From the NCBI GenBank assembly GCA_020724485.1, contig DYGW01000001.1, positions 2,559 through 66,558 of the forward strand: a DNA stretch of 64,000 nucleotides, written 5' to 3'. The notes under the pieces are model-generated. The model was given only the letters and a program-made list of their open reading frames with translations. It did no database searches and had not been told where the DNA came from. This DNA is from Thermoflexus sp. GTDB taxonomy: Bacteria; Chloroflexota; Anaerolineae; Aggregatilineales; Aggregatilineaceae. Numbering within the stretch: position 1 is the first letter of the stretch; each line of letters begins with the position of its first letter. The translations under genes and the position numbers were made by a program. Shown here piece by piece: positions 45,424-63,286 of the stretch.

Positions 45424-48156
45424 ATGACAGACCATACACTACGCGACCCGTTCAATGCGCGGGCGTCCCTGCAGACCGACGAGGGGCGCGTGACCTACTA
45501 TCGCCTGGCAGCCCTGCAAGAGCAGGGCATCGGCGCGGTGGAACGCCTGCCCTTTTCGATCAAGGTGCTGCTAGAGTCCGCGCTGCGCAGTAACAACGGG
45601 TTTGAGGTCACCGACGACGATGTGGCGAGGCTCGCCCGATGGTCACCGGCAGCGCAGGATGCACAGGAGATTCCCTTCAAGCCGGTGCGCGTGGTTCTGC
45701 AGGACTTCACTGGCGTGCCATCCCTGGTTGATCTGGCCGCTCTGCGCTCGGCGATGCAGCGCATGGGCGGCGATCCGGCGCGCATCAACCCGGCGATCCT
45801 CGTTGATCTGGTGATTGACCACTCGGTGCAGGTAGATGCCTTTGGCTCGCCGAATGCGCTGCGCATCAACGCGCAGTTCGAGTTCGAGCGTAACCGCGAG
45901 CGCTACGAGTTCATTCGCTGGGGCCAGGAAGTATTCTCGAACTTCCGGGCCGTGCCGCCAGCCACAGGCATTGTGCACCAGGTGAACCTGGAATACTTGG
46001 CGAAGGGCGTGCTCACCCAGCAAATCGGCGGCGAAGTCGTGGCCTTCCCCGACAGTCTGGTTGGCACCGACTCGCACACCACGATGATCAATGGATTGGG
46101 CGTCGTGGGGTGGGGCGTTGGCGGCATTGAGGCCGAGGCGGTCATGCTCGGCCAGCCGATCACCATGCTCATGCCCGAAGTCGTCGGCTTCAGGCTGGTC
46201 GGCCAACTGCCCGAAGGGGCAACCGCCACCGATCTGGTGCTGATCGTCACGCAGATGCTGCGCAAGAAGGGCGTTGTCGGCAAGTTCGTCGAGTTCTTCG
46301 GCCCCGGTCTCAGTCACCTGAGCCTGCCCGACCGCGCGACACTGGCCAACATGGCCCCTGAATACGGCGCGACGATGGGCTTCTTCCCGGTTGACGCCGA
46401 GACGCTGCGCTATCTCGCCTATACCGGGCGTCCGCCTCAACTGGTACGCCTGGTCGAGCAGTACACGCGCGCGCAGGGCATGTTCCGCACCGACGACATG
46501 CCCGATCCGGTCTTCTCCGACACCCTGGAATTAGACCTCGGCAGCGTCGAGCCGAGCCTCGCCGGGCCGAAACGCCCCCAGGATCGCGTGCTGCTCTCTG
46601 AGATGCAAGCCAGGTTCCGGCAGGCGCTGGTCGCGCCAACCGCCGAGCGCGGCTTCGCGCTGCCGCTCGAAGCCCTGGGTCGCCGCGCAAGAATCGAGAT
46701 CGGGCGCAACGGCCACCAGACTGTTGAAGCGGGGCATGGGCTGGTCGTGATCGCCGCCATCACAAGTTGCACGAACACCTCCAATCCCTCAGTCATGGTC
46801 GCCGCCGGACTGCTCGCCAAGAAAGCCGTCGAGCGCGGGCTGAAGGCTGCTCCCTACGTCAAGACCAGCCTGGCACCTGGCTCGAAGGTGGTGACGGCCT
46901 ACCTCGAAGAAGCGGGTTTGCTGCCCTATCTTGAGCAGCTAGGCTTCTATGTCGTTGGCTACGGCTGCACCACGTGCATCGGCAACAGCGGCCCGCTGGC
47001 AACGCAGGTGGCCGACGCCGTGAAGGGGTCCGATCTTGTGGCGGCGGCGGTGCTCAGCGGCAATCGCAACTTCGAGGGGCGCATCAACCCGCATGTGCGC
47101 GCCAACTATCTGGCTTCGCCGCCGCTGGTGGTGGCCTATGCCCTGGCTGGCACGGTTGACATTGACCTGCACGCCGATCCGCTCGGCTACGATCCGCAAG
47201 GCGATCCGGTCTATCTGCGCGACATCTGGCCGACGCAACGCGAAATCCAGCAGACCGTCGCGGCGGCGCTCAAGCCAGAAATGTTCGCCGAGCAGTACGG
47301 CAATGTCTATGACGGCAACGAAACCTGGAACGCAATCCCGGTAGCGGCCAGCCCGGTCTACCAGTGGGACCCGGACTCGACGTACATCCAGGAGCCGCCC
47401 TTTTTTGTAGACTTGACACCGGAGCCGGCCTCCATTGCTGACATCCGGGGAGCGCGGGTGCTGGTCTTGTTGGGCGACTCGGTGACGACTGATCACATCT
47501 CGCCAGCCGGTTCGATTGCCCCGGACAGCCCTGCCGGGCAGTACCTGATCGCGCGCGGCGTCGCCGTCAAGGACTTCAACTCCTACGGCTCGCGGCGCGG
47601 CAACGACCGGGTGATGGTGCGCGGGACTTTCGCCAACATCCGCCTGAAGAACCTGCTGGTGCCGGACACAGAAGGCGGCGTGACAGTGCATATTCCCAGC
47701 GGCGAGCAGATGACCATCTTCGACGCTGCCGAGCGGTACCGCGCCGAGCAGACTCCGCTTATCGTCGTGGCGGGGAAGGAATACGGCACGGGAAGCTCGC
47801 GCGACTGGGCGGCTAAGGGAACGCTGCTGCTGGGCGTGCGCGCCGTCCTGGCCGAGAGTTTCGAGCGCATTCATCGCAGTAACTTGATCGGCATGGGCGT
47901 GCTGCCGCTCCAGTTCCAGGAAGGTCAGAGTGCTGCCGCCCTGGGGCTGACGGGCTATGAGCGGTTCGATATTGAGGGCCTAGCGGACAATCTCGTACCG
48001 GGCGCGGAGTTGCCGGTGCGGGCTACCCGCAGCGACGGCACCAGCAAATCCTTCACCGTCATCTGCCGCCTGGATACGCCCGTCGAAGTCAAGTATTACC
48101 GCAACGGCGGCATTCTCCACGCCGTGCTGCGCGACTTGATGCGCCAGAGCGCGTGA
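45424..48156 (+). CDS. acnA: aconitate hydratase A
   Basis: Full-length AcnA pattern including Fe-S ligand regions ([21 protein letters not shown]). Confidence 0.95.
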
Positions 48157-48185
48157 TTGGGCGCACTTGCAAATACTCTCTGTGT

Positions 48186-48218
48186 TGGCGGCTCTCGAAA
48201 ACGAGCCGCCAGTTTCTT
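48186..48218 (+). terminator. rho-independent terminator after acnA
   Basis: Stem tggcggctc/gagccgcca with an 8-nt loop, followed by gTTTcTT. Confidence 0.55.
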
Positions 48219-48329
48219 GGTAGCGCTGGCTGGGTTGCCGAGATGCGCAAATGCGGCTGACTAGAGTAAGATAAAGGAGGGTTGCCCCGGCAACCCAGCA
48301 CAACTTCTCGTCCACCAGAGGAGCGCGAG

Positions 48330-49253
48330 ATGCCACGAGTGATCGTTGTTGGAAGCGCCAACGTTGATTTTGTCGTGCAGACCCCGCATATTCCCCGCCC
48401 CGGCGAGACCGTCCTCGGCCATCACTTCGTCATGGCGATGGGCGGGAAGGGGGCAAATCAGGCGGTCGGGGCTGCCCGGCTGGGCGCGGACGTGATATTT
48501 GTCGCCAGGGTTGGGCGCGACATCTTTGGCGATCAATGCATTGAGGCGTATCATGCTGAAGAAATTAATACTGAGTATGTTACCTATGATGATCACGAGG
48601 CTACGGGCGTCGCGCTGATCGCAGTGGCGGCAGATGGCGAGAACAGCATCACGGTGGCTTCCGGGGCGAACATGCGTCTCCTGCCGGAACACATCGCGGC
48701 GGCGCGAGAGGCGATTGCCCGCGCTGATGTGCTCGTCATGCAGCTTGAGGTTCCGGTCGAGACGGTGCTTGCCGCAGCGCGTATTGCGCGCGAGCACGGC
48801 GTGCGCATGGTGCTCAATCCCGCTCCGGCGCGCACCCTTCCTGACGACTTGCGCAGGCTGGTGGACGTGCTGACGCTCAATCGCATTGAGCTGGCTCAGC
48901 TTGCCGGACTCAGCGAAGGACAGGTCAGGCAGCTTTCCGAAGAACAGCTTGGCCAGGTGCTCTTAGGTCTAGGCGTGAAGCAAGGGGTCATCACACTCGG
49001 CGCGCAAGGCGCGTTGGTCGCGGATTCCGCCGGGGTTGTGCACGTGCCCGCGTTCCCGATCACGCCGCTCGACACCACGGCGGCGGGAGACGCATTCAAC
49101 GCAGGACTGGCCGTAGCCCTCGGGCGGGGTGGGGGGCTTGTTGGGGCGGCTCGCTTCGCCAGCGCATGTGGTGCCCTGGCCGCGACGAAGATGGGGGCGC
49201 AGCCGTCGCTGCCGACAGAAGTGGCTGTGGAAGCTTTTCTCGCTGAGCGGTGA
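48330..49253 (+). CDS. rbsK: ribokinase
   Basis: GGKGANQAV and DTTAAGDAFNAG PfkB/ribokinase signatures. ATG 48330 has GAGGAG upstream. Confidence 0.85.
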   Translation: MPRVIVVGSANVDFVVQTPHIPRPGETVLGHHFVMAMGGKGANQAVGAARLGADVIFVARVGRDIFGDQCIEAYHAEEINTEYVTYDDHEATGVALIAVAADGENSITVASGANMRLLPEHIAAAREAIARADVLVMQLEVPVETVLAAARIAREHGVRMVLNPAPARTLPDDLRRLVDVLTLNRIELAQLAGLSEGQVRQLSEEQLGQVLLGLGVKQGVITLGAQGALVADSAGVVHVPAFPITPLDTTAAGDAFNAGLAVALGRGGGLVGAARFASACGALAATKMGAQPSLPTEVAVEAFLAER

Positions 49254-49331
49254 TGCCCCACACATCATGGCGTGGGGCGGCGCGACCGGGCCAGCGAGCA
49301 TGGCTGCCCAAGCAAGGGGGAGATAAGGCAC

Positions 49332-50048
49332 ATGACAGCGAAAGTGCTCATCGTTGACGATGAACTGGCCATTCGGGACGCGCTGGGGCGGAAGCTGCGG
49401 CGCGAGGGGTTTGACGTGACGCTGGCCGGCGATGGCCTGGAAGGATTGCGCGTGTTCCACACCGAGCGCCCAGACCTTGTCGTGCTCGATATTGTGATGC
49501 CCGAAATGAGCGGCCTGATCGTCTGCGCGCGCATCCGCGAAGTGGCCGAGACGCCGGTGATGATGCTGTCCGCCCAGGCGGTGACGGAAGAAGACATCAT
49601 CGAAGGGCTGAACGCCGGCGCCGACGAGTACCTGGTCAAGCCCGTCCGCCTCAACGAGTTTGTCGCGCGCATCAAGGCGCTGCTCCGCCGCGCGCAGATG
49701 GCGTCACCGGGCGTCGAGGCCGGCTACAACGACGGCTACCTCAGCGTAGACCTGCAGCGCCGCCACGTCCATGTGGACGGGCAGAAGGTTCACCTGACGC
49801 CCACCGAGTTCAAACTGCTGATCGTCCTGCTGGAAAACGCCGGGCGCGTCGTGTCGCAGCGTGAGCTACTGGAGCAGGTGTGGGGGCCGGAATACGTGGA
49901 CGATGTGTACTATCCCCGCGTCTATATCAGCCAGCTCCGCCGCAAGATCGAGCCTGATCCCGCCAGCCCGATCTATATCTTGACCGAGCACCGCGTCGGG
50001 TATCGCTTCGAGAAACAAGGCAAGTACTCGCACAACTCGCATAAGTAG
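49332..50048 (+). CDS. OmpR-family response regulator
   Basis: Receiver domain (VLIVDDE ... DLVVLDIVMP ... K) plus a winged-helix output (LTPTEFKLL, GYRF). Confidence 0.9.
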   Translation: MTAKVLIVDDELAIRDALGRKLRREGFDVTLAGDGLEGLRVFHTERPDLVVLDIVMPEMSGLIVCARIREVAETPVMMLSAQAVTEEDIIEGLNAGADEYLVKPVRLNEFVARIKALLRRAQMASPGVEAGYNDGYLSVDLQRRHVHVDGQKVHLTPTEFKLLIVLLENAGRVVSQRELLEQVWGPEYVDDVYYPRVYISQLRRKIEPDPASPIYILTEHRVGYRFEKQGKYSHNSHK

Positions 50049-50066
50049 TGTTGGCCGATCCCAGGC

Positions 50067-52319
50067 ATGAACGCCACCACGCTCACGCTGCTGCTCAATG
50101 GCCTGACCCTGGCCTTTGCCCTGGGCCTGCTGGTTCTGGTCCTCTGGCAGGACTCGCGCAGCGCGGCTAACCGCTACTTCGCGCTCTTCGTGCTCATGGT
50201 CGCCATCTGGTCAGCAGGATCGCTGCTGGGGCGTGCGGCGGCCTACACGGGTGGCGAGCGCGCGGTCATCCGGCTGGGCCTGCGCCTGCTCGATTTTGGC
50301 TACGTGGGATCGAGCCTGGCGCTCTACGTTTATGCGGTGATCGTCACAGGCGTGCGCGGGCGTTTGTTTCGCCTGGTGAGCACAGCGAGCCTCGCCATCA
50401 TTCTCGCCTATGTCTTCTTCCTCGTCTTTGTCGTCGAAACCAGCCGGCCATTCGAAGTAACGGATGCCGGCCTGCTGAGCTATCGCTATGGCACGTCAGA
50501 GACCGCTCTGTTCCTTGCGCTGCACGCGGTCACCATGTTCATCGTCTGGCGTTATAGAGCCAAGATTAAGGCGCGCGGGCTGACGGTGGGCATTCTCATG
50601 GTCTGTGCGGGGCACATCCTGACGCTGATCAGCCCGCGCCTGCTTGTGCTCGGCACCGCCGAAGATGTGAGCGCGCTCGCCACTTTGATCATGACCTATG
50701 CCATTGTCCGCCACCAGATCATGGTTCCCTTGCTGGGGCGCGCCAAGCAGCTTGAAGCCGTCCGCGATGTCGGGTTGGCGATCAGCAGCCGTCTGCGCCT
50801 GAACGAGACATTGGCGGCCATTGCTGCTCAGGCTGCCGGACTGCTCGGCGCCGACGGCGCGGCGATTTACTTGAAGCGTGGGGATACGCTCAAGCTTGCT
50901 GCTGTGTTCAACATGCCCGCGCAGTTTGTCGGCATCGAGACCAGGGTAGGGGAGGGCATAGTCGGCACAGTGGCCGTGGAAGTGCGCGCCAGGCGTCTTG
51001 ATCATTATGGCCGTGACTGGACGGGGACCCCCGATCTGCCACTGGCGCGCGAGACGTTCGGGGCTGTGCTGTGTGTGCCCCTCGTCTTTGGCGGGGAGGT
51101 CGTGGGTGTCTTGCTGGTCGTGCAGGGCCAGCAGGGCGGACTCTTCGACCCCGAAGACCTACGCTTGCTAGAGCTGCTTGGCCCCCAGGCGGCAGTGGCG
51201 ATCACCAACAGCCGGCTTTTTGAGGCGGAGCGCGAGCTTCTCACCGATCTGGCGGTGGCCAAGCGCCAGCTTGAGGCGGTGCTGACCAGCACGGAGAACC
51301 CCGTGATCGCCGTAGACCGGCGGTTGCGCGTCCTTTTCGCTAACCCTGCTGCCAGCACGCTCCTGCATACGGAAATTGATCCGGTTGGGCAGTCATTGAC
51401 CGATCTCGTGCCGCGCCAGTTTCTTCCTGGCAATGTCCGCACGGTCTTGCGCGACCTGCGCAGCCGGCGCGCCCATGTGTACGAGGTGACAGTGCACAAC
51501 CACACCTATCTATGCCATGTCGCGGGCTTGGGGCGACCGCACCCGGAGGGATGGGTCGTAGTGTTGAACGATGTCACCGAGCTGAAAGAGTTGGATCGGC
51601 TCAAGAGCCAGATGATCCAGATGACCAGCCACGACCTGAAAAACCCGCTCCAGGCGGCGATGAGCTATATGGAGCTGTTGATCGAGGACGGCCAGGCGGC
51701 GTTCACGTCCGATATGGAAGACTATGTAGAGGCCGTCTGGTCGCAGTTGTCGCGCATGTACCGCCTGATCAACAGCATCCTCGACCTGGAACGCGCGGGA
51801 GGTGGGCGGCGCGTCAGCGAAGAGTGCGACCTGGCCGCGCTCCTGGGTCGAGTCGCGGTGGATATGGCGATGCCCGCGCGCGAACATCATGTCACGCTCG
51901 ATCTGCACATTGCCGAGGCCCTGCCGCCGATCAGCGGTGACGGCCAACAGTTGTCCCAGGCGTTCGCCAACATTGTGGACAACGCGATCAAATTCACCCC
52001 CGCCGGAGGGCGCGTGGACATCTACGCCTCCACCAACCACGCGGAGGTGCAGGTAGACGTGCGCGACACCGGAATCGGCATTCCAGAGGATGAGCTTCCC
52101 CACGTGTTCGAGCGTTTCTACCGGGGCAAGCAACGCGCTGCGCCCACGGTCAGTGGATCAGGGTTGGGGTTAGCACTGGTGAAGGTCGTCGTGGAGAGCC
52201 ACCGGGGTAGGGTGTTCTTGACCAGCGCGCCAGAGAAGGGTACTTGCGTGACCGTCATCCTTCCCGCTGCAGCGGGCGCGCTGCAGGGACTGCCAGACGC
52301 CAAGAAGGGGTTGCCGTGA
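50067..52319 (+). CDS. sensor histidine kinase (7TM input, GAF, PAS, HisKA, HATPase_c)
   Basis: N-terminal polytopic domain, GAF-like (LNETLAAIAAQAAGLLGADGAAIYL), H-box MTSHDLKNPL, and N/G boxes (DNAIKFTP, DTGIGI, GSGLGLA). Confidence 0.88.
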   Translation: MNATTLTLLLNGLTLAFALGLLVLVLWQDSRSAANRYFALFVLMVAIWSAGSLLGRAAAYTGGERAVIRLGLRLLDFGYVGSSLALYVYAVIVTGVRGRLFRLVSTASLAIILAYVFFLVFVVETSRPFEVTDAGLLSYRYGTSETALFLALHAVTMFIVWRYRAKIKARGLTVGILMVCAGHILTLISPRLLVLGTAEDVSALATLIMTYAIVRHQIMVPLLGRAKQLEAVRDVGLAISSRLRLNETLAAIAAQAAGLLGADGAAIYLKRGDTLKLAAVFNMPAQFVGIETRVGEGIVGTVAVEVRARRLDHYGRDWTGTPDLPLARETFGAVLCVPLVFGGEVVGVLLVVQGQQGGLFDPEDLRLLELLGPQAAVAITNSRLFEAERELLTDLAVAKRQLEAVLTSTENPVIAVDRRLRVLFANPAASTLLHTEIDPVGQSLTDLVPRQFLPGNVRTVLRDLRSRRAHVYEVTVHNHTYLCHVAGLGRPHPEGWVVVLNDVTELKELDRLKSQMIQMTSHDLKNPLQAAMSYMELLIEDGQAAFTSDMEDYVEAVWSQLSRMYRLINSILDLERAGGGRRVSEECDLAALLGRVAVDMAMPAREHHVTLDLHIAEALPPISGDGQQLSQAFANIVDNAIKFTPAGGRVDIYASTNHAEVQVDVRDTGIGIPEDELPHVFERFYRGKQRAAPTVSGSGLGLALVKVVVESHRGRVFLTSAPEKGTCVTVILPAAAGALQGLPDAKKGLP

Positions 52320-52879
52320 AAATCTACACACGAACGGGAGACGCAGGGCAAACCAGCCTGTTTGCGGGAGGGCGTGTCAGCAAGGATCATGTCCGGTTGC
52401 ATGCCTATGGCAGCGTGGACGAGCTAAACTCTCTGCTGGGCGTCGTGCTGGCAGCGGGTCTGCCAGACGCGCTCAGCGCCAGCGTGCAGCGCGTGCAGCA
52501 TGACCTGTTCGTCGTCGGCGCAGACCTCGCCACGCCGCTGGACGCCGCGAGCAGCTATGTCTTGCGCGTCGGGCCGGAGCGCGTGCAGGCGTTGGAGGCG
52601 GAAATTGACGAGTGGGAGGCGCTCCTGCCGGCGCTAAAGCACTTCATCCTGCCGGGCGGCTCGTTGGGGGCTGCTCTGCTCCACCAGGCGCGCACGGTGT
52701 GCCGGCGGGCCGAAAGGTGGGTCGTGGCGCTCCAGACGGGCGAGAGCATCAACGGCGAAGTCCTGCGCTATCTCAACCGGCTGTCGGACTGGCTGTTTGT
52801 CGCGGCGCGCTGTGCCAACCGCGACGCCGGCGTCGCGGAGGTGCAATGGCGACGGCCTGACGGGACAGAATCATCGTAG
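52316..52879 (+). CDS. ATP:cob(I)alamin adenosyltransferase, PduO type
   Basis: N-terminal KIYTRTGDAGQTSLF signature. GTG 52316 overlaps the kinase stop (GTGA). Confidence 0.85.
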   Translation: MKIYTRTGDAGQTSLFAGGRVSKDHVRLHAYGSVDELNSLLGVVLAAGLPDALSASVQRVQHDLFVVGADLATPLDAASSYVLRVGPERVQALEAEIDEWEALLPALKHFILPGGSLGAALLHQARTVCRRAERWVVALQTGESINGEVLRYLNRLSDWLFVAARCANRDAGVAEVQWRRPDGTESS

Positions 52880-52880
52880 A

Positions 52881-52940
52881 AATAGTTTTATTTGCCATAC
52901 TGTATTATATATACACATATTTATATGGATTTCTCTACTG
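52881..52940. other. sharply AT-rich tract (23% GC by hand count)
   Basis: aatagttttatttgccatactgtattatatatacacatatttatatggatttctctactg has 14 G/C in 60 nt, directly after the pduO-type stop in a ~63-70% GC context. Confidence 0.8.
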
Positions 52941-53134
52941 GGCAGATGAGTGACGAACCGGACTCGCGCAGCGCGATCCGTCAATTTAGGCGACGATGAT
53001 CGGGACGAGCACGGCGTGGCGCGCCATCACGGGGAAGCAGGCGCAGAACCGTTGCGCGGTCGAGCCAGCGGCAGAGCAGGGCGGCTTTGTGCCGTGTGAC
53101 TTCTGGCAGCCAAGTGGGGTTGCCAGATTGCGGA

Positions 53135-53191
53135 TACTATAGTAACATAACGAAGGAAATGCACGATAGGGGCTTCTTATGTTACACATAA
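53135..53191. promoter_or_regulatory. nested AT-rich palindromes / inverted repeat upstream of the TIR-recombinase gene (candidate operator or recombinase site)
   Basis: TACTATAGTA (53135-53144, perfect 10-bp palindrome). GTAACATAAcGAAG (53142-53155) is inverted against CTTCTTATGTTAC (53173-53185). TTATGTtacACATAA (53177-53191) is a perfect 6-3-6 palindrome. The start codon is at 53207. Confidence 0.35.
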
Positions 53192-53206
53192 TGAGGACAG
53201 AGGCGA

Positions 53207-54697
53207 ATGGACATATTTATCAGCTATGCACGCGAGGATTCTCTCTTTGCAAACTGGCTCAGCAGCGAGCTACAGCGCAGAGACTTCTCCGTTTTCCTTG
53301 ACACCAGTGATCTTGTTCCTGGAACTGTATGGCAGAATGAGATCGAGAAAGCAATCCGCGCATGTCGCATCGTGCTCCTTGTCCTCAGTCCTCATAGCAT
53401 GGCTTCTAAGTGGGTCAAGTGGGAGTGTATGCTTGCGCAACACTATGGAAAGAGACTGGTTCCGCTTCAGATAGCCCAACTCCCACACGAGCCAGACTTT
53501 GTTCGTGGCCTACAGCTTGTGGACTTGACAACTCTTCCCATGAACGCGGTGGCGATCAGCCACATTGTCAGCTTGCTGCCCAAAATAGACCAACGGACTC
53601 TTGGCATCGTCCGTGACGCTTACCTCCAGCGTGCCACTCTTAAGTCCGACCACACTATCACTGCCTATCGTCGCGCGATTGAGCTGTTCCTCGAATTCCT
53701 GGGCGATCCGTCGCAGCGCGGGCGTCTGCCAGTGCATAGTCGCGTACCAGCCGCACCTGATGACACACCCCTTAACGCCCTAACTGCGGCAGACGCTCCA
53801 ATCTTCCTGCATTTCGCAGAATGGATGTTATCTAGCCCCACTCGCAAATCAGATGACAAGCGGCCATACAAGGTCTCTACGGTCGAACTGCGGCTGGCGG
53901 GCATCCAGAACTGGTTCCAGTTCATGGACGATCATGGCTGGCTGCCGCCGGACTTCCCGCTGGCCAAGGCCAGACGCATCGTGCGCGACGAACTACGCGG
54001 ACAATCGCGCCAGGGCGGCCCACCTGAGCCGCCGCTGAACATCGAAGAGGTCATCTACTTCTACGATAATCTCAAGCCCCCACGCCGTCTCGCCGATCCC
54101 GACGCGCCCGCCGAACGCCGCGAGCGCTGGGAATTGACGCGCCTGCGCAACTGCGCCCTGCTGCGCGCGCTGGCCGAGTCGGGCGGACGAGTCAGCGAAG
54201 TGCTGAGCCTGAACCTCGACGACTTCCCAGAACGCTTTCTGCAGCGCGACGACGTGCTGCGCGTCGCTGTGCGGGGCAAAGGCGGCCATGTGTACCATTT
54301 GCGCTTCCACGACGCGCTGCCGGCCATCCGGGCCTACATCGAACGGCGCGGCGCGGCATTGCGCGCCACGCGCTCCGGCAAAGTCCCGCTGTTCGTGAGC
54401 CACGACGCGCGCTTCGACGGCAGCCGCATGAGTCGTATCGTCGCCTGGCGAGTGGTGCAGCGCGCCGCCCGTGCCCTGGGACTGGGCAGCATCACGCCCC
54501 ACGACTTCCGCCACTGGCGGGCGACACAACTGCTCAACGCGGGCTATCCGCTGGATGTCGTGCAGGATTACCTGGGGCACCGTTCGGTCGAGACGACGCG
54601 CGCCTACTACGCGCATACCGATCCGCTGCGCGTAGACGAGGCCGCGCGTAGCGTGGGACTGCCCCGTTTGCCCGATGATGATTCGCAACCTGGTTGA
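53207..54697 (+). CDS. TIR domain fused to a tyrosine site-specific recombinase (SAM-like core-binding domain plus intact catalytic domain)
   Basis: Residues 1-~125 (DIFISYAREDSLFANWLSSELQRRDFSVFLDTSDLVPG..WQNEIEKAIRACRIVLLVLSPHSMASKWVKWEC) match the TIR_2 pattern, including the conserved Glu (E73). Residues ~150-260 carry the HTITAYRRAIELFLEFL SAM-like domain. The C-terminal part has the full R-K-HxxR-H-Y set: GGRVSE, GKGG, HDFRHW, LGHRS, RAYYAH. Confidence 0.85.
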   Translation: MDIFISYAREDSLFANWLSSELQRRDFSVFLDTSDLVPGTVWQNEIEKAIRACRIVLLVLSPHSMASKWVKWECMLAQHYGKRLVPLQIAQLPHEPDFVRGLQLVDLTTLPMNAVAISHIVSLLPKIDQRTLGIVRDAYLQRATLKSDHTITAYRRAIELFLEFLGDPSQRGRLPVHSRVPAAPDDTPLNALTAADAPIFLHFAEWMLSSPTRKSDDKRPYKVSTVELRLAGIQNWFQFMDDHGWLPPDFPLAKARRIVRDELRGQSRQGGPPEPPLNIEEVIYFYDNLKPPRRLADPDAPAERRERWELTRLRNCALLRALAESGGRVSEVLSLNLDDFPERFLQRDDVLRVAVRGKGGHVYHLRFHDALPAIRAYIERRGAALRATRSGKVPLFVSHDARFDGSRMSRIVAWRVVQRAARALGLGSITPHDFRHWRATQLLNAGYPLDVVQDYLGHRSVETTRAYYAHTDPLRVDEAARSVGLPRLPDDDSQPG

Positions 54698-54716
54698 ACA
54701 CCTGGCACGGCGATGG

Positions 54717-55112
54717 TCACCTGTCCCGGTAACCCTGGCCCAGCGGCACGGCGAGCATGATCCCGATGAAGCCGACCAATACGCCGAGATGGAGCAGCAC
54801 AGCGGGGATGCACAACCAGTAGAGACCGGCGTCAAAGCGGCCCGCCTCCACGAGCAGCGCAATGACAAGGCCGCTGGCCAGCAGGCTGAGCACAACCAGC
54901 ACCGTGCCGACGAGCAGCGGCACACCGCGCTGCGGTGCAATGGATGAAGACAGCGCAGTAATCACGTTGCCAAATCGCGGCGACGCATCCACTCGCCGGA
55001 GAAAAGGCCCGCTCACCACCATCAGTCCCGCCCACAGCAGCCTGGCGGCGCTGCGCAAGAGGTACAGCAGCAGTGCGATCAGCTTGCTGAGGCCCCCAAC
55101 AATACGCTTCAT
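54717..55112 (-). CDS. hypothetical small membrane protein (about 3 TM helices)
   Basis: 131-aa ORF with an ATG start and hydrophobic helices (LIALLLYLL..., VGTVLVVLSLLASGLVIALLV, CIPAVLLHLGVLVGFIGIMLAV). No recognisable family. Convergent with the TIR-recombinase gene. Confidence 0.5.
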   Translation of the reverse strand: MKRIVGGLSKLIALLLYLLRSAARLLWAGLMVVSGPFLRRVDASPRFGNVITALSSSIAPQRGVPLLVGTVLVVLSLLASGLVIALLVEAGRFDAGLYWLCIPAVLLHLGVLVGFIGIMLAVPLGQGYRDR

Positions 55113-55283
55113 GGCTGCACGTCATCCCCTCAGTCCTATAGGGTGCAATTCGCGATGGGGGCGGAATTCTTGAACCGCAGGGACGCAGAGCACACAGAGG
55201 AGAACTATGAAGATTCTTTGCTTTTCTCCGCGCTCTCTGCGCCCTGCGGTAATGCTTTGCTCCAGAACTGAAATGCACCCGTC

Positions 55284-56606
55284 CTATAGCAGGCCCGCCT
55301 GCCGCATGCGCCCGGCCAGCCAGTGCGGTACATGCGCTTCGATGGCCACGCCCTGCTCTGTGTGACGCTCATCAAGCACGACCCCACGACCATGAATCGC
55401 CGAAATCAACTCTCCCTTCTCATACGGAATTGTTATTTTAATCATGACAAAGTCTACTAACAGCACGTTACTGATGGCCTCTCGCAGGGCATCCAGGCCA
55501 ACCCGCTCCTGGGCTGAAACGCGCACCATGGCCTGGTAGCCCAGCGCCGCATAGTCAATCGGCCCGCAGGACTCGCCTCGATCAATCTTGTTCAGCACGA
55601 GCAACTTCGGAATCCGCGTGGCTTCTAGCTCGGCGAGCGTATCTTCCACCACGTCAATGTGATCCCAGGCGCGCTCGTGGCTGGCATCCACCACATGCAC
55701 CAGCAGGTCTGCGTCAGCCACTTCTTCCAGAGTCGCCCGAAATGCAGCGACCAGCGTCACCGGAAGCTTCTGGATGAAGCCCACGGTGTCGGACACGAGC
55801 ACGACGCGGCCATTGGGCAGGTCAACACGCCGGATGGTGGGATCGAGGGTGGCGAACAGTTGATCCGCGACGTACACATCTGCGCCGGAAAGCGCGTTGA
55901 GCAGCGTTGACTTGCCGGCGTTGGTGTAGCCAACCAGAGCCACCGTGGGGATGCCCGATCGCATCCGTTGTTGGCGATGCCGCTGCCGGTGAGCGCGCAC
56001 CGACTCCAACTCGTCGCGCAGCCTGGCGATCCTGCGCCCGATCTCGCGCCGGTCTACTTCAAGCTGAGTCTCGCCGGGGCCGCGCAGCCCGACTCCCCCT
56101 GCCCCACCGCGCGCCGCGCCGCCCCCTGCCTGGCGCGCCAGGTGAGTCCATTGCCGCGTCAAACGCGGCAGACGGTACTCGTACTGCGCCAGTTCGACCT
56201 GCAGCGCGCCCTCGCGGGTGCGCGCGTGTTGCGCGAAAATGTCGAGGATCAGCGCGGAGCGATCCAGCACTTGCACGTGCTCGCCCAGCGCCTTCTCTAG
56301 CTCGCGTTGGTGGCGTGGCGAAAGCTCATCGTCAAAGATGATCATGTCCGCGCCGGTCTCAACGATGGTCTCGGCGATCTCCTCCAGCTTGCCGGAGCCG
56401 ATGAAAGTCGCGGGGTCAATGCGCGCCACACGTTGCACTGCCCGCCCGACGACCTGCACGCCCGCCGTGTTGGCCAGCAAGGCCAGCTCGTCCAGCGAGT
56501 CCTTGGCGGAGAACAGCGCATGAGAGCCGCGCAACTCCACGCCCACGAGCAGGGCGCGGCTTGGGCCAAGGTCGTTAGTTGTGCTGCCGTTGCGCTCAGA
56601 AAGCAT
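55284..56606 (-). CDS. hflX: GTPase HflX
   Basis: HflX N-domain and G-domain motifs (VALVGYTNAGKSTLLNAL, DTVGF, NKID). Start at ATG 56604-56606. The track extension to 56879 translates the MITE-like repeat. Confidence 0.9.
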   Translation of the reverse strand: MLSERNGSTTNDLGPSRALLVGVELRGSHALFSAKDSLDELALLANTAGVQVVGRAVQRVARIDPATFIGSGKLEEIAETIVETGADMIIFDDELSPRHQRELEKALGEHVQVLDRSALILDIFAQHARTREGALQVELAQYEYRLPRLTRQWTHLARQAGGGAARGGAGGVGLRGPGETQLEVDRREIGRRIARLRDELESVRAHRQRHRQQRMRSGIPTVALVGYTNAGKSTLLNALSGADVYVADQLFATLDPTIRRVDLPNGRVVLVSDTVGFIQKLPVTLVAAFRATLEEVADADLLVHVVDASHERAWDHIDVVEDTLAELEATRIPKLLVLNKIDRGESCGPIDYAALGYQAMVRVSAQERVGLDALREAISNVLLVDFVMIKITIPYEKGELISAIHGRGVVLDERHTEQGVAIEAHVPHWLAGRMRQAGLL

Positions 56607-56732
56607 GGGCAGGGTGCTCGCCTGATGGCACTTTGCGACTCTCGCAGCGCCGTGCGTCGCAGCATGGCGCTGCTCATAACGCGCATTATAACTCAGGCGA
56701 TGCTTTCGCCCAATTCGGTGGGAGATCGCGGG

Positions 56733-56921
56733 TCCACGAACAAGTCGTGAACGTGTTTGTCCCCCCCCATCCTCGGCCCTTCCCCCCTCAGCCCACGAGG
56801 GGGGAAGGGAGAAAAACGGCGGGCCTGCTCCCCTTCCCTCCGCGCAGCGTGGGGGAAGGGGTTGGGGAATGGGGGGCAATCCCAGCGCCCAAGTGCCCAG
56901 CCCTAACAGGTTGTTCGTGGA
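56733..56921 (+). mobile_element. MITE-like intergenic repeat, family 1, copy 2
   Basis: 189 bp with the same 11-bp terminal inverted repeats TCCACGAACAA...TTGTTCGTGGA and the same orientation as 14639-14819. It lies between the trmFO stop and the hflX promoter region. Confidence 0.75.
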
Positions 56922-56954
56922 GCCGGAGATCGCAGAGATCGCACGGATCGCGCT

Positions 56955-58328
56955 TCAGCTTCCCTCGGACGCCAGGAAACTCTCCAGATCGCTGGCGGCG
57001 CGCTCGGCGAAGGCCCGCTTGCGCTCGCTCTTGCGGCGCGGGGGTGTGGCAAGCGGCGGCATGATCCCGAAATTGGCCTTCATCGGCTGGAAGTCCTGTG
57101 GCTCGGCATGGGCCACATAATGGCACAGCGCGCCTAGCATTGTGGTGGGTGGCAGCGTCCAGACCGGCTGGCCCAGAACCAGGCGGGCGGTGTTGATTCC
57201 GGCCAGCAGTCCCGTGCCGATACTGCCCACGTAACCTTCGACTCCCGTGATCTGCCCGGCGAAGAAAAGATCGTCGCGCTGCCTGAACTGGAGCGACGGT
57301 CTCAGATGGGCCGGCGCGTTGATGAACGTGTTACGGTGCATCATGCCATAGCGGGCGAACTCGGCCTTTTCCAGTCCGGGTATCATGCGCAGGACGCGCT
57401 GCTGCTCGTCCCATCGCAGATTTGTCTGGAAGCCGACCATGCTGTACAGCGTGCCGGCCAGGTTGTCCTGGCGGAGCTGCACGATGGCAAAGGGACGCTG
57501 CCCGGTGCGTGGGTCGCGCAGCCCGACGGGACGCATCGGACCGAAGGCCAGCGATTGCGGCCCGCGCGCGGCGATCTGCTCAACAGGCAGGCACGCCTCG
57601 AAGAAGCGCGGGTCTTCGCGCTCAAAATAGCGCAGCGCGATAGTCTCCGCTTCCAGCAGGGCCGCGACAAAGCGGTGATACTCTTCCTCGGTCATCGGGC
57701 AGTTGATGTAGTCGCCTTCGGCCCCTTCGCCCCGGCCATAGCGGCTGGCGCGAAAGGCGACCGCCATGTTGATTGTCTCGGCGTACACCGTCGGGGCGAT
57801 GGCATCGTAGAAGTACAGGTGCTCCGTGCCCAGCAGCCGGCCCAGTTCCTCGGCGAGCGCCGGACTGGTCAGCGGCCCGGTGGCCATCACGCACGGCCCA
57901 TCGGGGATGCCCGTCACTTCCTCGCGGATAATCGTGATCAGCGGATGGTCGCCCACGGCCTGCGTGACCTGTGCCGCGAACACATCGCGGTCTACGGCCA
58001 GCGCACCACCGGCGGGGACAACTGCCCGGTCGGCGCAGGCCATCAGCAGCGACCCCAAACGGCGTAGCTCATTTTTCAGCACACCCGGCGCGCGGTCCGC
58101 CAGGTCCGACCCAAGCGAGTTGCTGCACACCAGTTCCGCCAGCCGGTCGGTCTGGTGGGCGGGCGTCGTCCGCTGCGGGCGCATCTCGTAAAGCTGCACC
58201 GGCACGCCGCGCTGGGCGATCTGCCAGGCCGCTTCTGACCCGGCCAGCCCGCCCCCAATGACGCGCACAGGTGTGCGTTCGGTCTCACGCATGAGCCGCT
58301 CCTGGAATCCCTCCAGCGACATTGGCAC
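56955..58328 (-). CDS. trmFO: methylenetetrahydrofolate-tRNA-(uracil-5)-methyltransferase TrmFO
   Basis: FAD motif [16 protein letters not shown] and the full-length TrmFO/Gid pattern ([17 protein letters not shown]). Confidence 0.92.
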
Positions 58329-58482
58329 CGCGCTGCCTTCTCGACCCGGTGACTTAAATCACCCCACCCCGATTGTAATGAGTTGCGCTACCATTGCCCA
58401 GGTGCGTTTTGCGCGCACTCTGCATGGGACAATGGGCCGCGCCGACGCTCTGCGGACAGGGCATTTCCTGCGCGGAACACCC

Positions 58483-58512
58483 TTGACTCGCAGAACACAA
58501 ATCTGGTATCCT
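58483..58512 (+). promoter_or_regulatory. candidate promoter for the lytic transglycosylase gene
   Basis: TTGACT (58483-58488), 18 nt spacer, TATCCT (58507-58512). Confidence 0.3.
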
Positions 58513-58518
58513 AGAGAC

Positions 58519-58544
58519 AGAGATAGAACGCATGTTCTATCTCT
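58519..58544. promoter_or_regulatory. 26-bp perfect palindrome at the start of the leader (operator or RNA hairpin)
   Basis: agagatagaac-gcat-gttctatctct has 11-bp perfect arms and is AT-rich. It lies immediately downstream of the candidate -10. Confidence 0.4.
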
Positions 58545-58597
58545 AACCATCCCGCTACCTGCGTAAGTCCGCACTGGTACACGAGGGAAAAGAACCG

Positions 58598-59326
58598 GTG
58601 ATCACTCGCCTACCGTCACTCATCTTCGCCGCCGCCGCACTGCTCTCCTGCGCCGCCATCGGCTTTGCCGCCACGCTGGGGACGGCCCTTGTATGGCACG
58701 CCGCAACAGGGAGCCGAGTCTACACTGTGGCCGATCCGTATCGCTACGGATACGCCGATTCTCCGGTCGGGCCGCAGGCAGCAGCCAGCCCCCTGTCGGG
58801 AGTCTTCACCGACGAAGTGCTGTACTGGACACCGCTCATCCAGGCGTGGGCTGTCCTCTACCAGATTGATCCCAACCTGATCGCCACCCTCATCCAGATC
58901 GAAAGTTGCGGCGACCCTGCTGTGTCGTCTCCGGCAGGAGCGCAAGGGCTGTTTCAGGTGATGCCCTTTCACTTCGATCCCAGCGAAGATATGCTGGACG
59001 TGCCAACGAATGCGCGGCGAGGGATGAACTACCTGGCCGGCAGCCTGGAGATCGCCGGTGGTCATGCCGGGCTGGCGCTAGCTGGCTACAACGGCGGGCA
59101 CGGAATCATCCGCAGCGGGTGGGCAACGTGGAGCGCAGAAACCCGGCGCTACTATTACTGGGGGGCGCGCATCTACGCGGAAGCGGTGTCCGGCATGGCG
59201 ACCAGCCCTACACTGGACGAGTGGCTGGCCGCCGGTGGAAGCCGCCTCTGCGCTCAGGCGCGGCTGACACAGAGCCAACTGGAACAGGCCAAGCGCGCCC
59301 AGGTGATAGTCATTCCGGGGAATTGA
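58598..59326 (+). CDS. lytic transglycosylase (SLT domain) with N-terminal signal/anchor
   Basis: SLT motifs LIQIESCGDP (catalytic Glu), AQGLFQVMP and AGYNGG. Confidence 0.8.
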   Translation: MITRLPSLIFAAAALLSCAAIGFAATLGTALVWHAATGSRVYTVADPYRYGYADSPVGPQAAASPLSGVFTDEVLYWTPLIQAWAVLYQIDPNLIATLIQIESCGDPAVSSPAGAQGLFQVMPFHFDPSEDMLDVPTNARRGMNYLAGSLEIAGGHAGLALAGYNGGHGIIRSGWATWSAETRRYYYWGARIYAEAVSGMATSPTLDEWLAAGGSRLCAQARLTQSQLEQAKRAQVIVIPGN

Positions 59327-59361
59327 ACGGCTACCACCTGATCGCCGCTGGCGTGCACATT

Positions 59362-60618
59362 CTATGCCCGGCCAAAAACCACGCAGGCGTTTTGTCCGCC
59401 GAGGCCAAAGCTGTTCGACATGGCGAAAGTCAGCTTGGCATCGCGCGCTTCATTGGGCACGTAGTCGAGATCGCATTCCGGATCGGGCGTCTCCAGGTTA
59501 ATCGTCGGGTGTAGTATCTGCTCGAACAGCGACATGACAGTGGCGATTCCCTCCACAGCGCCCGCCCCACCGAGCAGATGTCCGAGCATACTCTTGGTCG
59601 AGTTGGCCGCCAGCTTATAGGCGTGATCTTTGAAGACCTGCTTCATGGCGCGGGTTTCAACCGCGTCGTTCGCCTGGGTGGACGACCCGTGCGTGTTCAC
59701 GTAGTCAATCTTGTCGGGGTCTAGCCCGGCATCCTGGATTGCCCAACGCATGGCATTAGCCGCGCCCAGCCCGGTCGGTTCCGGTGCCGCCACGTGGTAA
59801 GCGTCGGATGACGCCGCCATACCAAGCACCTCGGCGTAGATGCGCCCCCCCCGCTTGATCGCCCGTTCCAGCGTTTCCAGGATCATCGCCCCCGCGCCTT
59901 CGGAGAAGACGAACCCGTTGCGATTAAGATCGAAGGGACGGCTTGCTTTGTCCGGATTGTCGTTGTAACCCGTCGCTAGGCCCTTCATCGAGATGAAGCC
60001 AGCGATGCCATAGTCGAGGATCATGGCCTCCACGCCGCCAGTCACCACCATGTCCGCTTTCCCATAGCGGATCAGGTTCATCGCGTCGCCGATGCTGTGC
60101 GTACCGGTGGCGCAGGCCGTCGAAAGGCACACCAGCGGCCCCAATGCGCCCAGCACCCGGCTAACATGGTGGGCGGGAATGTTTGGGATCGATTCGATCA
60201 ATGAGAAGGGGCCAGGACGCCGCCCTTTCGTGCGGAAGCCGAACGACGCCTGCTGAGCTAGATCGTGTGCGCCCAGCGATGACCCGAAGTCCACCGCTAC
60301 GCGCTCCCGGATCGGCTCGATGTCCTCGACAGTCAGCCCGGCATCTTTGAGAGCATCCATCGCTGCTGTCACCGCAAACTGCGCTGGCCTGCCCATGCGC
60401 CGTGCTTCCTTTGACTCGATGTACTCCGTCGGGTCAAAGTCGAGGACTTCACCGGCAATCTGCACTTCCAGGTCTGACGGGTCGAAGCTCTGAATGCGTC
60501 TCACGCCGGATATACCGGCTTTGAGCTTCTCCCAGTACTCCGGGAACCGTCCCAACGGGGTGACGGCCCCCATCCCAGTGATCACCACACGCGGAAAACC
60601 ATTGCGCATGAGTTCCAT
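59362..60618 (-). CDS. fabF: beta-ketoacyl-ACP synthase II
   Basis: VVITGMGAVTPLG start, active-site Cys context (LSTACATG), His motifs (NTHGSST, GHLLGGAG) and a C-terminal NSFGLGGQNA. Confidence 0.93.
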   Translation of the reverse strand: MELMRNGFPRVVITGMGAVTPLGRFPEYWEKLKAGISGVRRIQSFDPSDLEVQIAGEVLDFDPTEYIESKEARRMGRPAQFAVTAAMDALKDAGLTVEDIEPIRERVAVDFGSSLGAHDLAQQASFGFRTKGRRPGPFSLIESIPNIPAHHVSRVLGALGPLVCLSTACATGTHSIGDAMNLIRYGKADMVVTGGVEAMILDYGIAGFISMKGLATGYNDNPDKASRPFDLNRNGFVFSEGAGAMILETLERAIKRGGRIYAEVLGMAASSDAYHVAAPEPTGLGAANAMRWAIQDAGLDPDKIDYVNTHGSSTQANDAVETRAMKQVFKDHAYKLAANSTKSMLGHLLGGAGAVEGIATVMSLFEQILHPTINLETPDPECDLDYVPNEARDAKLTFAMSNSFGLGGQNACVVFGRA

Positions 60619-60653
60619 AGCACTCGTCCTTTTCCTTGCGCTCTCACTCAGCC

Positions 60654-61661
60654 CTATTCATCTTGTGCGGGCACGGTGTGCAGACCATCGGCGATGGCCT
60701 GCACGATCCGCCCGGATACGGCATATTGGGCCTGGCGGATGGCGTTCTTCACAGCAAACGCATTCGAGCGCCCATGCCCGATGATGACAACACCGTTGAC
60801 GCCCAGAAGGGGTGCCCCGCCGACCTCGAAGGGATCAATCGCCCGGTACACGCGCCGGAAGGCCGGTTTGCCGAGCAGCCCGGCCAGCTTCGACCGCCAA
60901 TCCGCGCGCAGTTCCTGGCGGATGAGGTCGAAAACAGTAGCCCCAATCGCCTCCATAGACTTAAGCAGCACGTTACCGGAGAAGCCGTCCATGACGGCCA
61001 CATCAACACTGCCCCCCAGGATTTCTTTCGGCTCTACGTTTCCTACGAAATTAACCCCACTGCGCTGGAGGAGTTCCGCCGCTTCCTGAACCAATACCGT
61101 GCCCTTGCCCAGTTCCTCACCGTTGGAGAGCAGCCCCACACGCGGACTGCTGTGGCCGAGCGCGTGCTGCGCGTAGAGACTTCCCATCACGGCGAATTGG
61201 GCGAGCCATTCCGCCTTGCAGTCGGCGTTAGCGCCGATGTCCAGCACCATCACCGACGTGCCGCCAAGGGGAAGAAGCGCACACAGAGCCGGGCGGTGAA
61301 CGCCAGGAATACGCTTGAGCGTATGCAAAATGGCGATGGCCAGCGCGGCGCCGGTGTTGCCCACCGTCACGAAGGCATCGGCCTGACCATTCCCAACCAG
61401 CCGCATCCCGACGTGCATAGACGAGTTTAGCTTGGCGCGACCCACCACACCTGGCTTGTCGGACATCGCCACGGCCTCCGGCGCGTGGACGATCTCAAGC
61501 GGCAGCCCCTGGCAGTCGTGCTTTGCCAGTTCCGCTCGCACCCTCGGCTCATCGCCGACCAGGAGAACCTCCACCCCTAGCTCGCGAGCAGCCAATACAG
61601 CCCCTTCGACATCAGGGGCCGGGTGACGGTCGCTACCCATCGCATCGAGGGCAATCTTCAT
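60654..61661 (-). CDS. plsX: phosphate acyltransferase PlsX
   Basis: MKIALDAMGSD start and the full PlsX pattern. ATG 61659-61661. Confidence 0.92.
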   Translation of the reverse strand: MKIALDAMGSDRHPAPDVEGAVLAARELGVEVLLVGDEPRVRAELAKHDCQGLPLEIVHAPEAVAMSDKPGVVGRAKLNSSMHVGMRLVGNGQADAFVTVGNTGAALAIAILHTLKRIPGVHRPALCALLPLGGTSVMVLDIGANADCKAEWLAQFAVMGSLYAQHALGHSSPRVGLLSNGEELGKGTVLVQEAAELLQRSGVNFVGNVEPKEILGGSVDVAVMDGFSGNVLLKSMEAIGATVFDLIRQELRADWRSKLAGLLGKPAFRRVYRAIDPFEVGGAPLLGVNGVVIIGHGRSNAFAVKNAIRQAQYAVSGRIVQAIADGLHTVPAQDE

Positions 61662-61752
61662 TGCACGGCTTCCTCTTTTGAGCCAATTCGCAGCCACAGA
61701 CACACAGGGCACAGCCTTCGATTGTACGCCGGTCAGGCGGTGTTGCCAACCA

Positions 61753-61782
61753 TTGACAGAACCGCGACGGGCTGTATATAAT
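61753..61782 (+). promoter_or_regulatory. sigma-70-type promoter for tRNA-Leu
   Basis: TTGACA (61753-61758), 18 nt spacer, TATAAT (61777-61782). The tRNA 5' end is 12 nt downstream. Confidence 0.5.
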
Positions 61783-61793
61783 TTGCCTTACTT

Positions 61794-61879
61794 GCCCTGG
61801 TGGCGGAATTGGTATACGCGGCAGGTTGAGGGCCTGTGCCCGTACGGGCGTGGAGGTTCGAGTCCTCTCCAGGGCACCA
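61794..61879 (+). tRNA. tRNA-Leu (anticodon GAG), class II with long variable arm, CCA encoded
   Basis: Manual fold: acceptor GCCCTGG/CCAGGGC, anticodon stem GCAGG/CCTGT with loop TTGAGGG (GAG at 34-36, G37), variable-arm hairpin GCCCG-TA-CGGGC, T-arm GGAGG-TTCGAGT-CCTCT, and 3' ACCA. Confidence 0.9.
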
Positions 61880-61915
61880 ATCCTTGCACATTAAGCGGTG
61901 TGCATTTGCCAATTA

Positions 61916-61951
61916 CGAGGAGCGCGCAAGAGCGGCGCTCCTCGTTTGTTT
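61916..61951 (+). terminator. rho-independent terminator after tRNA-Leu
   Basis: Perfect 10-bp stem cgaggagcgc/gcgctcctcg with a 9-nt loop, followed by TTTgTTT. Confidence 0.6.
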
Positions 61952-62107
61952 CCTCGCTCTTTGCTTTGCGTCGTCTGCGTCGCCGCCGTTTAGAGAACAT
62001 CGCCCCAGTCTGGGATACGCTGCTGCGCAGCCGCCTTGCACCACAATCCAGTCTGGCTATAATCCGCCTTATGAGGATTGCGTCAGGCAGCGCGTGGAGG
62101 GAGCGAC

Positions 62108-63265: not shown

Positions 63266-63286
63266 CAGGGTTCGTGCCAGCTCGCG

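Follow-up and report, generated by a model that had tools for sequence, protein, structure and literature searches.

What does a bacterium gain from joining a TIR domain to a tyrosine recombinase in one protein? The question is raised by an open reading frame (ORF) at 53207..54697 on the + strand of a 64,000-nucleotide stretch of Thermoflexus sp. DNA (contig DYGW01000001.1; hereafter the window), which encodes 496 residues without interruption: an N-terminal TIR domain followed by a Xer-like recombinase. A preliminary description of the sequence had offered three readings, namely a one-gene defence or abortive-infection module, a recombinase controlled through its TIR domain, and a mobile-element integrase with a TIR as cargo. 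Our analysis indicates that the gene is probably the chromosome's Xer-type dimer-resolving recombinase, forming one module with a dif-like site upstream of it at the replication terminus. The module is best read as a single-recombinase Xer/dif system in which the recombinase bears an added N-terminal TIR domain, often canonical, that is linked to an extra half-site.

The TIR domain covers residues 1 to ~125 (53207..53581, +). Pfam TIR_2 spans residues 3-109 with an E-value of 7.6e-27 and 94.7 bits against a cut-off of 28, and the Pfam TIR profile (45.6 bits versus a cut-off of 21.3) and ThsB_TIR match as well. In an AlphaFold2 model of the fused protein, predicted from 121 homologues with a pLDDT (predicted local distance difference test) of 91.3 and a pTM (predicted template modelling score) of 0.60, the N-terminal part could be superimposed on the TIR of SARM1 with a TM-score of 0.75-0.77; for SARM1 and AbTir together, the TM-scores against the modelled TIR part range from 0.72 to 0.77. 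Profiles and model thus bear out the TIR fold proposed for residues 1-125, and the two Pfam families in one uninterrupted frame bear out the fusion itself. The ORF carries the motif of the canonical class, FISY...D...SP...WVxxE, and phmmer aligned WVKWE of the query to WVHKE of SARM1, which puts Glu73 (codon 53423..53425, +) at the position of the catalytic Glu, as the preliminary description had supposed. The matching SARM1 residue is E642. Compared with the closest relative, L001 (94% identical), the ratio of non-synonymous to synonymous substitution rates (dN/dS) of the TIR is 0.135, indicating purifying selection. Matches of NCBIfam and PADLOC to Thoeris, SAVED, pAgo-associated and retron proteins are all confined to the TIR part.

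The remainder of the protein consists of an all-helical, SAM-like core-binding domain (residues 131 to ~308; 53597..54130, +) and a catalytic domain matching Pfam Phage_integrase (PF00589; residues 312-471; 54140..54619, +) with an E-value of 1.1e-24 and 87.6 bits against a cut-off of 27.1. The core-binding domain, also named in the preliminary description, is supported by the model in its alignment with XerA and XerH, whereas its Pfam match (residues 138-167) stays below threshold, at 18.9 bits versus 22.3. Structural similarity search with the model gave archaeal XerA (PDB 4a8e), XerH-difH (PDB 5jjv) and the Tn1549 integrase as the best fold matches, and the predicted recombinase part aligns over ~364-384 columns with the first two. 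The closest solved sequences found by phmmer are XerA 4a8e (E-value 1.5e-10), XerD 1a0p, XerA 5hxy and XerH 5jjv.

Both hallmarks of the tyrosine recombinase superfamily, the R-K-H-R-H-Y set and the Phage_integrase-type fold, are present. The catalytic domain holds R328, K358, H432, R435 and H458, and two adjacent tyrosines, Tyr467 and Tyr468, are encoded at 54605..54610 (+). Among 121 aligned homologues, R328, K358, R435, H458 and Y468 are invariant and H432 is retained in 119, so the active site is complete, as had been reported. Since Y467 is replaced by Phe in four of the 121, Tyr468 is the likelier nucleophile of the recombinase; the phmmer alignment puts Y467, not Y468, on the Tyr of XerD. 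An active site kept in this way implies real recombination rather than mere sensing.

Comparison of upstream spacers among related loci (denoted by L numbers) revealed a conserved recombination-type site 20-67 nt upstream of the start codon (53140-53187). Its dif-like core (53140..53167, +) is composed of arm1 TAGTAACATAA (53140-53150), a 6-bp spacer CGAAGG (53151-53156) and arm2 AAATGCACGAT (53157-53167), in which only the inner AAATG is conserved. A third half-site, arm3 TTATGTTACAC (53177..53187, +), follows 9 nt past arm2, ahead of the start codon at 53207; it repeats the arm1 core perfectly in inverted form, is oriented as arm2 and starts 20 nt past the arm2 start. The arm core TTATGTTA is identical to the XerD arm of Escherichia coli dif (TTATGTTAAAT). 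The preliminary description was right that no defence or phage genes lie in the flanks, but the flanks are not featureless, given this site.

The site is rare and tied to the gene. The 9-mer GTAACATAA and its complement have no further copy in the 64-kb window, and GTAACATAA-N6-AAATGTTA, allowing up to three mismatches, has a single occurrence, by the gene, in each of 40 loci, with only two stray matches in ~1.1 Mb. A metagenome scan for the exact site returned 71 matches, mostly chance occurrences in AT-rich contigs; in GC-rich contigs, all six exact sites either precede a family gene by 76-113 nt or fall at the end of a contig. The clade of L032, L035 and L039 shows a compensatory G>C / C>G change across the two arms, and in L039 the site is a perfect palindrome, GCTAACATAA-CTTATG-TTATGTTAGC, downstream of a separate TTGACA-17-TAGAAT promoter. 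In L036, the site is inverted and ~350 bp away from the gene, and it is therefore more than the promoter of the gene. In addition, a consensus scan of the window found a promoter-like TTGCCA-17 nt-TAACAT (53120..53148, +) whose -10 hexamer falls inside arm1, and the site may therefore autoregulate the recombinase gene too.

A replication-terminus signature is centred on the site, as judged over the whole window (1..64000) from cumulative G-C, third-codon-position (GC3) skew and the polarity of GGGNAGGG. Cumulative G-C reaches its maximum in the window at 53459; in 19 related loci (13-21 kb), its distance from the site never exceeds 760 bp and is no more than 100 bp in 12. Every locus of at least 53% identity, including the non-syntenic L023, L032, L036 and L037, has a positive skew on the left of the site and a negative one on the right; no such switch was seen in a paralogue-like group of 41-47% identity. 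Third-codon skew on the + strand is likewise positive on the left and negative on the right for + and - genes alike. The switch is therefore linked to replication, and a skew artefact driven by transcription was rejected.

An unbiased ranking of 8-mers by their polarity relative to the site, over 545 kb comprising the window and 28 loci, revealed GGGCAGGG as the most strand-polarised word (90 to 6), which fits the E. coli consensus GGGNAGGG. The latter occurs on the (+) and (-) strands in ratios of 104:7 to the left and 4:62 to the right of the site, compared to a polarity of only 2.6:1 for words of the same composition; the control (paralogue) loci show no polarity of GGGNAGGG. The window itself contains 26 matches versus 10.7 expected, almost perfectly polarised towards 53.1 kb, with 18 (+) to 1 (-) in its 53-kb left arm; examples start at 107, 265, 17903, 18902, 33495 and 35282 (+) and at 56097 and 63525 (-). 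GGGNAGGG is the consensus of the FtsK-orienting polar sequences (KOPS) of E. coli, which are directed to dif (PMC2800217), and its polarity here suggests that the Anaerolineae FtsK reads the same word as that of E. coli. A G-rich block GGCAGAGCAGGG (53070..53081, +), ~60 nt upstream of arm1 and invariant in six close relatives, is also KOPS-like and directed towards the site. Le Bourgeois et al. identified dif sites by three criteria, namely resemblance to dif, uniqueness and a position where the bias switches (PMC1914069); the site described here resembles dif and lies at the bias switch, and its uniqueness was examined locally.

Two groups of more distant recombinases were also seen. In other Anaerolineae metagenome-assembled genomes (MAGs), L047-L051, L054 and L057 encode a TIR-less relative (41-47% identity; recombinase at ~10001-11008) that adjoins the orthologous response regulator / histidine kinase pair, present there in inverted orientation. 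Neither a skew switch nor KOPS polarity nor a dif-like site accompanies this relative, which is either a paralogue or a displaced orthologue. Copies of the 9-mer TTATGTTAC ~5.5 kb apart in L047-L057 were considered as flanking sites and rejected as chance matches within conserved coding sequence. In L063, L066, L067 and L071, from other 'Chloroflexia' MAGs, much more distant recombinases (33-39% identity) are separated from HflX and TrmFO by a few kb. GC skew switches there as well and GGGNAGGG is weakly polarised, but no recognisable site adjoins them.

Altogether, the adjoining dif-like site, the skew switch and the KOPS-like polarity, which were missed in the preliminary description, identify the recombinase part as a Xer-type dimer resolvase. 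A dif site directly upstream of its single recombinase gene has a precedent in XerS (PMC1914069; PMC5357621), and recombinase and dif are likewise organised as one module in XerH and in some XerA systems. By analogy with XerS, XerH, XerA and XerCD, we propose that protomers would occupy the inverted arms (...GTAACATAA, 6 bp, AAATG...) on a pair of sister dif sites, and that the bound protomers would synapse and exchange strands via Tyr468, converting chromosome dimers to monomers. An FtsK-type translocase would probably be guided to the site by the GGGNAGGG words converging from both sides. We found no description in the literature of a TIR fusion to a tyrosine recombinase, Xer protein or integrase, nor of a Xer/dif system of this kind in Chloroflexi or Anaerolineae; the survey by Kono (2011) covers Dehalococcoides only among the Chloroflexi.

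Several observations weigh against this assignment. The uniqueness of the site is local, resting on the 64-kb window and on one copy per 13-21-kb locus. The site overlaps promoter-like hexamers, so its conservation could be partly regulatory, and arm2 is weak past AAATG in TIR-bearing loci including the window, which leaves the exact recombination core uncertain. No recognisable site was found beside the gene in the distant members L034, L037, L038, L040 and L043, and a search for palindromic sites near these and near L063-L071 gave nothing convincing. Moreover, the recombinase gives only partial matches to NCBIfam XerC (96.5 bits versus a cut-off of 335), XerD (96.4 versus 330), XerA (84.7 versus 220) and XerS (62 versus 267); judged from these equivalog scores, far under their cut-offs, it is not orthologous to any named Xer and constitutes a separate family. 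Finally, many of the loci share ancestry, and the counts are not fully independent events.

The genomic setting of the gene is conserved. Searching related loci with the neighbours from the window by tblastn, together with Pfam, demonstrated that the gene order is kept in ~35 species-level genomes, with aconitase, ribokinase, response regulator, histidine kinase and PduO-type cobalamin adenosyltransferase (Cob_adeno_trans) on the left of the recombinase, and a small membrane protein (-), HflX (-), TrmFO (-), SLT transglycosylase and FabF (-) on the right. TIR-bearing and TIR-less recombinases share this one slot; L004-L007, for instance, are TIR-less, with neighbours ~90% identical to those in the window. 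The housekeeping flanks are kept down to ~55% protein identity, and the recombinase gene tree broadly agrees with those of the neighbouring genes. As judged from this conserved synteny, the recombinase gene is a vertically inherited core gene of Anaerolineae. Nearby, we saw no second recombinase, defence genes or element genes, no flanking direct or att repeats beside the gene and, by Pfam analysis of the neighbours, no partner effector or sensor (ThsA, SIR2, SLOG or other). No tRNA adjoins the gene, the sole one in the window being at 61794-61879, and an Rfam scan of 52000-58000 found no family.

Base composition and divergence set the module somewhat apart. The TIR segment has a GC content of 0.51 and the upstream spacer 0.51-0.52, compared to 0.65 for the recombinase part and 0.63 for the window. 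Between the TIR-bearing window (53597-54697) and the TIR-less L004 and L005, the recombinase dS is 0.67-0.81, compared to 0.26-0.47 for the flanking genes; dN and dS are both about twice those of the flanks in this comparison, which is not so between two TIR-bearing genomes. This hints at cassette-like exchange of the dif-recombinase module, with or without the TIR, among related lineages.

Homologue search against 5.8 billion proteins found 226 relatives, and those that are named all belong to Chloroflexota, class Anaerolineae. A scan of species-representative genomes yielded 76 loci, in MAGs that bear the names Thermoflexus, Aggregatilineaceae, Anaerolineaceae and Ardenticatenales. The N-terminal domain was counted in 114 near-full-length members of the best 120 homologue clusters (226 matches in all). 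It is present (~125 residues) within one ORF in 76 of them, a result that rules out the frameshift artefact considered earlier, as there are many independent fused orthologues; the other 38 lack it and start a few residues before the position of residue 131. The catalytic Glu is retained in 36 of the 76 and missing in 40. Mean pairwise identity is 70% in the recombinase part and 30% in the N-domain, whose conserved positions are core or structural ones (D11, A15, L22, S61-P62, A77, P96 and D106).

On neighbour-joining trees, the outgroup and the basal, Ardenticatenales-like members are without the N-domain, and its state changes at least nine times when scored as presence or absence and ~24 times when scored in three states. 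On these trees, the N-domain appears to have been gained once within the family and then repeatedly lost or degraded. An exhaustive search with the TIR alone, which collected 34,875 TIR proteins, gave giant multi-TIR proteins as the top matches (~30-39% identity) and revealed no donor lineage and no other TIR-recombinase architecture. One member of 57% identity, L064 (contig CAVPJJ010000001.1), comes from a bin named 'uncultured Gammaproteobacteria' and is probably a mis-binned Chloroflexota contig.

Presence of the N-domain co-varies with the layout of the site. Both the N-domain and arm3 are found in 20 loci and neither in 14, with three exceptions (L003, L009 and L024). Loci with the N-domain have arm1-N6-AAATG(variable), then 6-9 nt, then a strong arm3, TCTTATGTTRC (20 loci; exceptions L003 and L009), and those without it have a well-conserved arm2 (AAATGTTAYAT) and no arm3 (14 loci; exception L024). 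Mapped on the tree, the N-domain and arm3 were gained together about once and lost together about three times.

Since the Glu is missing from half of the N-domains, the only role that all of them can share is a non-catalytic one. We tentatively suggest, as the likeliest such role, protein-protein assembly, through TIR-TIR contacts that bridge protomers on arm3 and arm2 or through tighter autorepression. In the former case, by analogy with the arm sites of heterobivalent integrases, a protomer on the strong arm3 would recruit another onto the weak arm2, and the contacts would thereby control assembly or directionality. In the latter, arm3, located between promoter and ribosome-binding site, would serve as an additional operator, through which a TIR protein that may be toxic would repress its own gene more tightly. 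Of the three readings in the preliminary description, control of assembly via the TIR comes closest and is compatible with the evidence.

Catalysis is a separate matter. Although N-domains share only ~30% identity overall, 36 lineages have held on to the Glu and the FISY/W motif, and the TIR of the window has a dN/dS of 0.135; this suggests that the canonical class depends on catalysis or on NAD (nicotinamide adenine dinucleotide) binding. An NADase or signalling function of Glu-bearing TIRs, among them that of the ORF at 53207-54697, is therefore credible, if less likely than assembly. It is unlikely that such a TIR is an active NADase or nucleotide-signal synthase switched on by protomers gathered on dif, either on three half-sites or in a four-protomer dimer synapse. 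If it were, a chromosome dimer, or a phage or integrative element that hijacks dif, would give rise to an NAD+-derived signal or to NAD+ depletion, and the TIR signal would delay division or kill the cell, amounting to a TIR surveillance built into the chromosome segregation machinery.

Three other explanations of the locus have to be weighed against a dimer-resolving Xer/dif module. The upstream motif might be a promoter or operator for autoregulation only, with the recombinase acting elsewhere, for example in inversion, and the terminus position coincidental. The overlap of TTGCCA-17-TAACAT with arm1 agrees with this, as do the possibility of reading arm1-N6-arm2 of TIR-less loci as TTGTAA-17-TATATT with a TG extension and the position of arm3 between promoter and ribosome-binding site. 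However, conservation falls on GTAACATAA and AAATG, with the TT of the -35 element varying among loci; L039 has a separate good promoter upstream of its perfectly palindromic site; and L036 has its site inverted and ~350 bp from the gene. Moreover, the site is the point at which skew and GGGNAGGG polarity switch in both syntenic and non-syntenic loci, and the arm sequence equals the XerD arm of dif. A purely regulatory motif is thus quite unlikely.

Alternatively, the protein might be a stand-alone anti-phage or abortive-infection factor, in which the recombinase senses foreign or branched DNA and activates the TIR NADase, leading to NAD+ depletion or a signal. This draws on the strength of the TIR_2 match, the resemblance to the TIR parts of Thoeris, SAVED and pAgo-associated proteins in PADLOC and NCBIfam, the catalytic Glu and SARM1-like pocket motif, the low TIR dN/dS and the persistence of the Glu in 36 lineages whose N-domains are so divergent. 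Against it stand the setting, which is a core position kept at the terminus, marked by a dif-like site and by KOPS-like polarity, and not a defence island; the housekeeping neighbours, without ThsA, SIR2, SLOG or another effector; and the invariant recombinase active site. In addition, one third of the orthologues at the same locus lack the TIR, and half of the rest lack the Glu. A Thoeris-like or other TIR defence system was rejected, there being no partner gene and the database matches being confined to the TIR, and we regard the stand-alone version as very unlikely; defence as the main function, the first reading of the preliminary description, is unsupported. Its third reading, an integrase of a prophage, integrative and conjugative element (ICE) or integrative mobile element exploiting Xer (IMEX) with the TIR as cargo, is scarcely credible. 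The Phage_integrase domain and the low GC of the TIR segment and upstream spacer would fit it, as would the recombinase dS of about twice that of the flanks between the window and its TIR-less relatives, which suggests an exchangeable module. It is contradicted by the same housekeeping genes on both flanks in dozens of genomes, and was rejected on this synteny; there are also no element genes, flanking direct repeats or adjacent tRNA, and the gene tree broadly tracks the neighbouring genes.

Further features lie around the gene. A 131-residue predicted membrane protein without a Pfam match (54717-55112, -) is tail-to-tail with the recombinase gene, 20 bp apart; its position is retained in almost all syntenic loci, TIR-bearing and TIR-less, and it is therefore not specifically tied to the TIR. 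The longest HflX ORF (55284-56879, -; 531 residues, TTG start) has ~125 N-terminal residues before the first Pfam domain and overlaps a hairpin region, its true start being probably near 56600. This region, at 56777-56860 between hflX and trmFO, contains two tandem GC-rich hairpins resembling repetitive extragenic palindromic (REP) elements: the first, CCCTTCCCCCCTC...GAGGGGGGAAGGG, at 56777-56809, and the second, a 76%-identical repeat unit 51 nt downstream, at 56836-56860. They explain the '+'-strand GGGAAGGG matches to the right of the site. On the other side of the recombinase gene, a strongly AT-rich patch (52880-52945) follows directly on the end of the cobalamin adenosyltransferase coding sequence. 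It holds its place in the close relatives L001, L005 and L006 and includes a promoter-like TTGCCA-18-CATATT (52892-52921); its equivalent in L001 holds a second dif-like half-site (CCATTAACATAATTATATGAATG).

Anaerolineae are a large group, most of it uncultured, and these results suggest that they possess a single-recombinase Xer/dif module not described before. Its dif site, as a marker of the terminus, would together with polar GGGNAGGG words like those of E. coli help directly to orient and check metagenome-assembled chromosomes. A TIR domain on a core chromosome-maintenance enzyme is an unexpected add-on since, to our knowledge, the TIR domains of bacteria are elsewhere almost confined to immunity. 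One orthologous locus offers three natural variants, with a canonical TIR, a Glu-less TIR or none, and so an unusually clean system in which to study a TIR role other than that of a death effector, and the co-variation of TIR and extra half-site gives a hypothesis, testable at the bench, on how an accessory domain reshapes a recombination site.

Compared to known systems, the module combines features that are elsewhere separate. Heterobivalent integrases of the lambda Int type also have an extra N-terminal domain and extra half-sites, with possible control of assembly or directionality, an analogy only (PMC9791396). They differ in that the N-domain of lambda Int binds DNA of another sequence than the core arms, whereas arm3 repeats the core-arm sequence here and the extra domain is a TIR without a known DNA-binding role. 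The TIR NADases SARM1, AbTir, Thoeris ThsB and SPARTA TIR-APAZ share with the Anaerolineae TIR the fold, the motif FISY...D...SP...WVxxE and the aligned catalytic Glu; in Anaerolineae, however, the TIR is fused to a housekeeping recombinase, has no partner nearby and can dispense with the Glu within the family.

Among Xer systems, E. coli XerCD/dif with FtsK and KOPS has a similar ~28-bp site of two arms and a 6-bp spacer at the skew switch, and the arm core TTATGTTA is identical to its XerD arm. In both cases, GGGNAGGG words are polarised towards the site (PMC2800217). By contrast, the task is divided in E. coli between two paralogous recombinases, which lack a TIR and whose genes lie far from dif. 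The use of a single recombinase, here presumably for dimer resolution, is shared with XerH/difH of Helicobacter and Campylobacter and with archaeal XerA/dif, which gave the best sequence and fold matches (4a8e and 5jjv); in some archaea, xerA and dif likewise form one module. Nevertheless, identity to XerH and XerA is only ~18-21%, neither has an extra N-terminal domain, and XerA is reported to be independent of FtsK, unlike what the KOPS-like polarity of the Anaerolineae locus would suggest. XerS/difSL of Streptococci and Lactococci differs in its 31-bp difSL with an 11-bp centre, compared to the 6-bp spacing and XerD-arm-like arms of the Anaerolineae site, and in having no TIR and no third half-site; the NCBIfam XerS score given above is correspondingly low. 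The two systems agree in their overall architecture, in which a single tyrosine recombinase and a dif site directly upstream of its gene form one module at the sign switch of strand bias (terC), with the site possibly in or next to the gene promoter (PMC1914069; PMC5357621), and autoregulation via the site has been proposed for difSL-xerS as well (PMC1914069).

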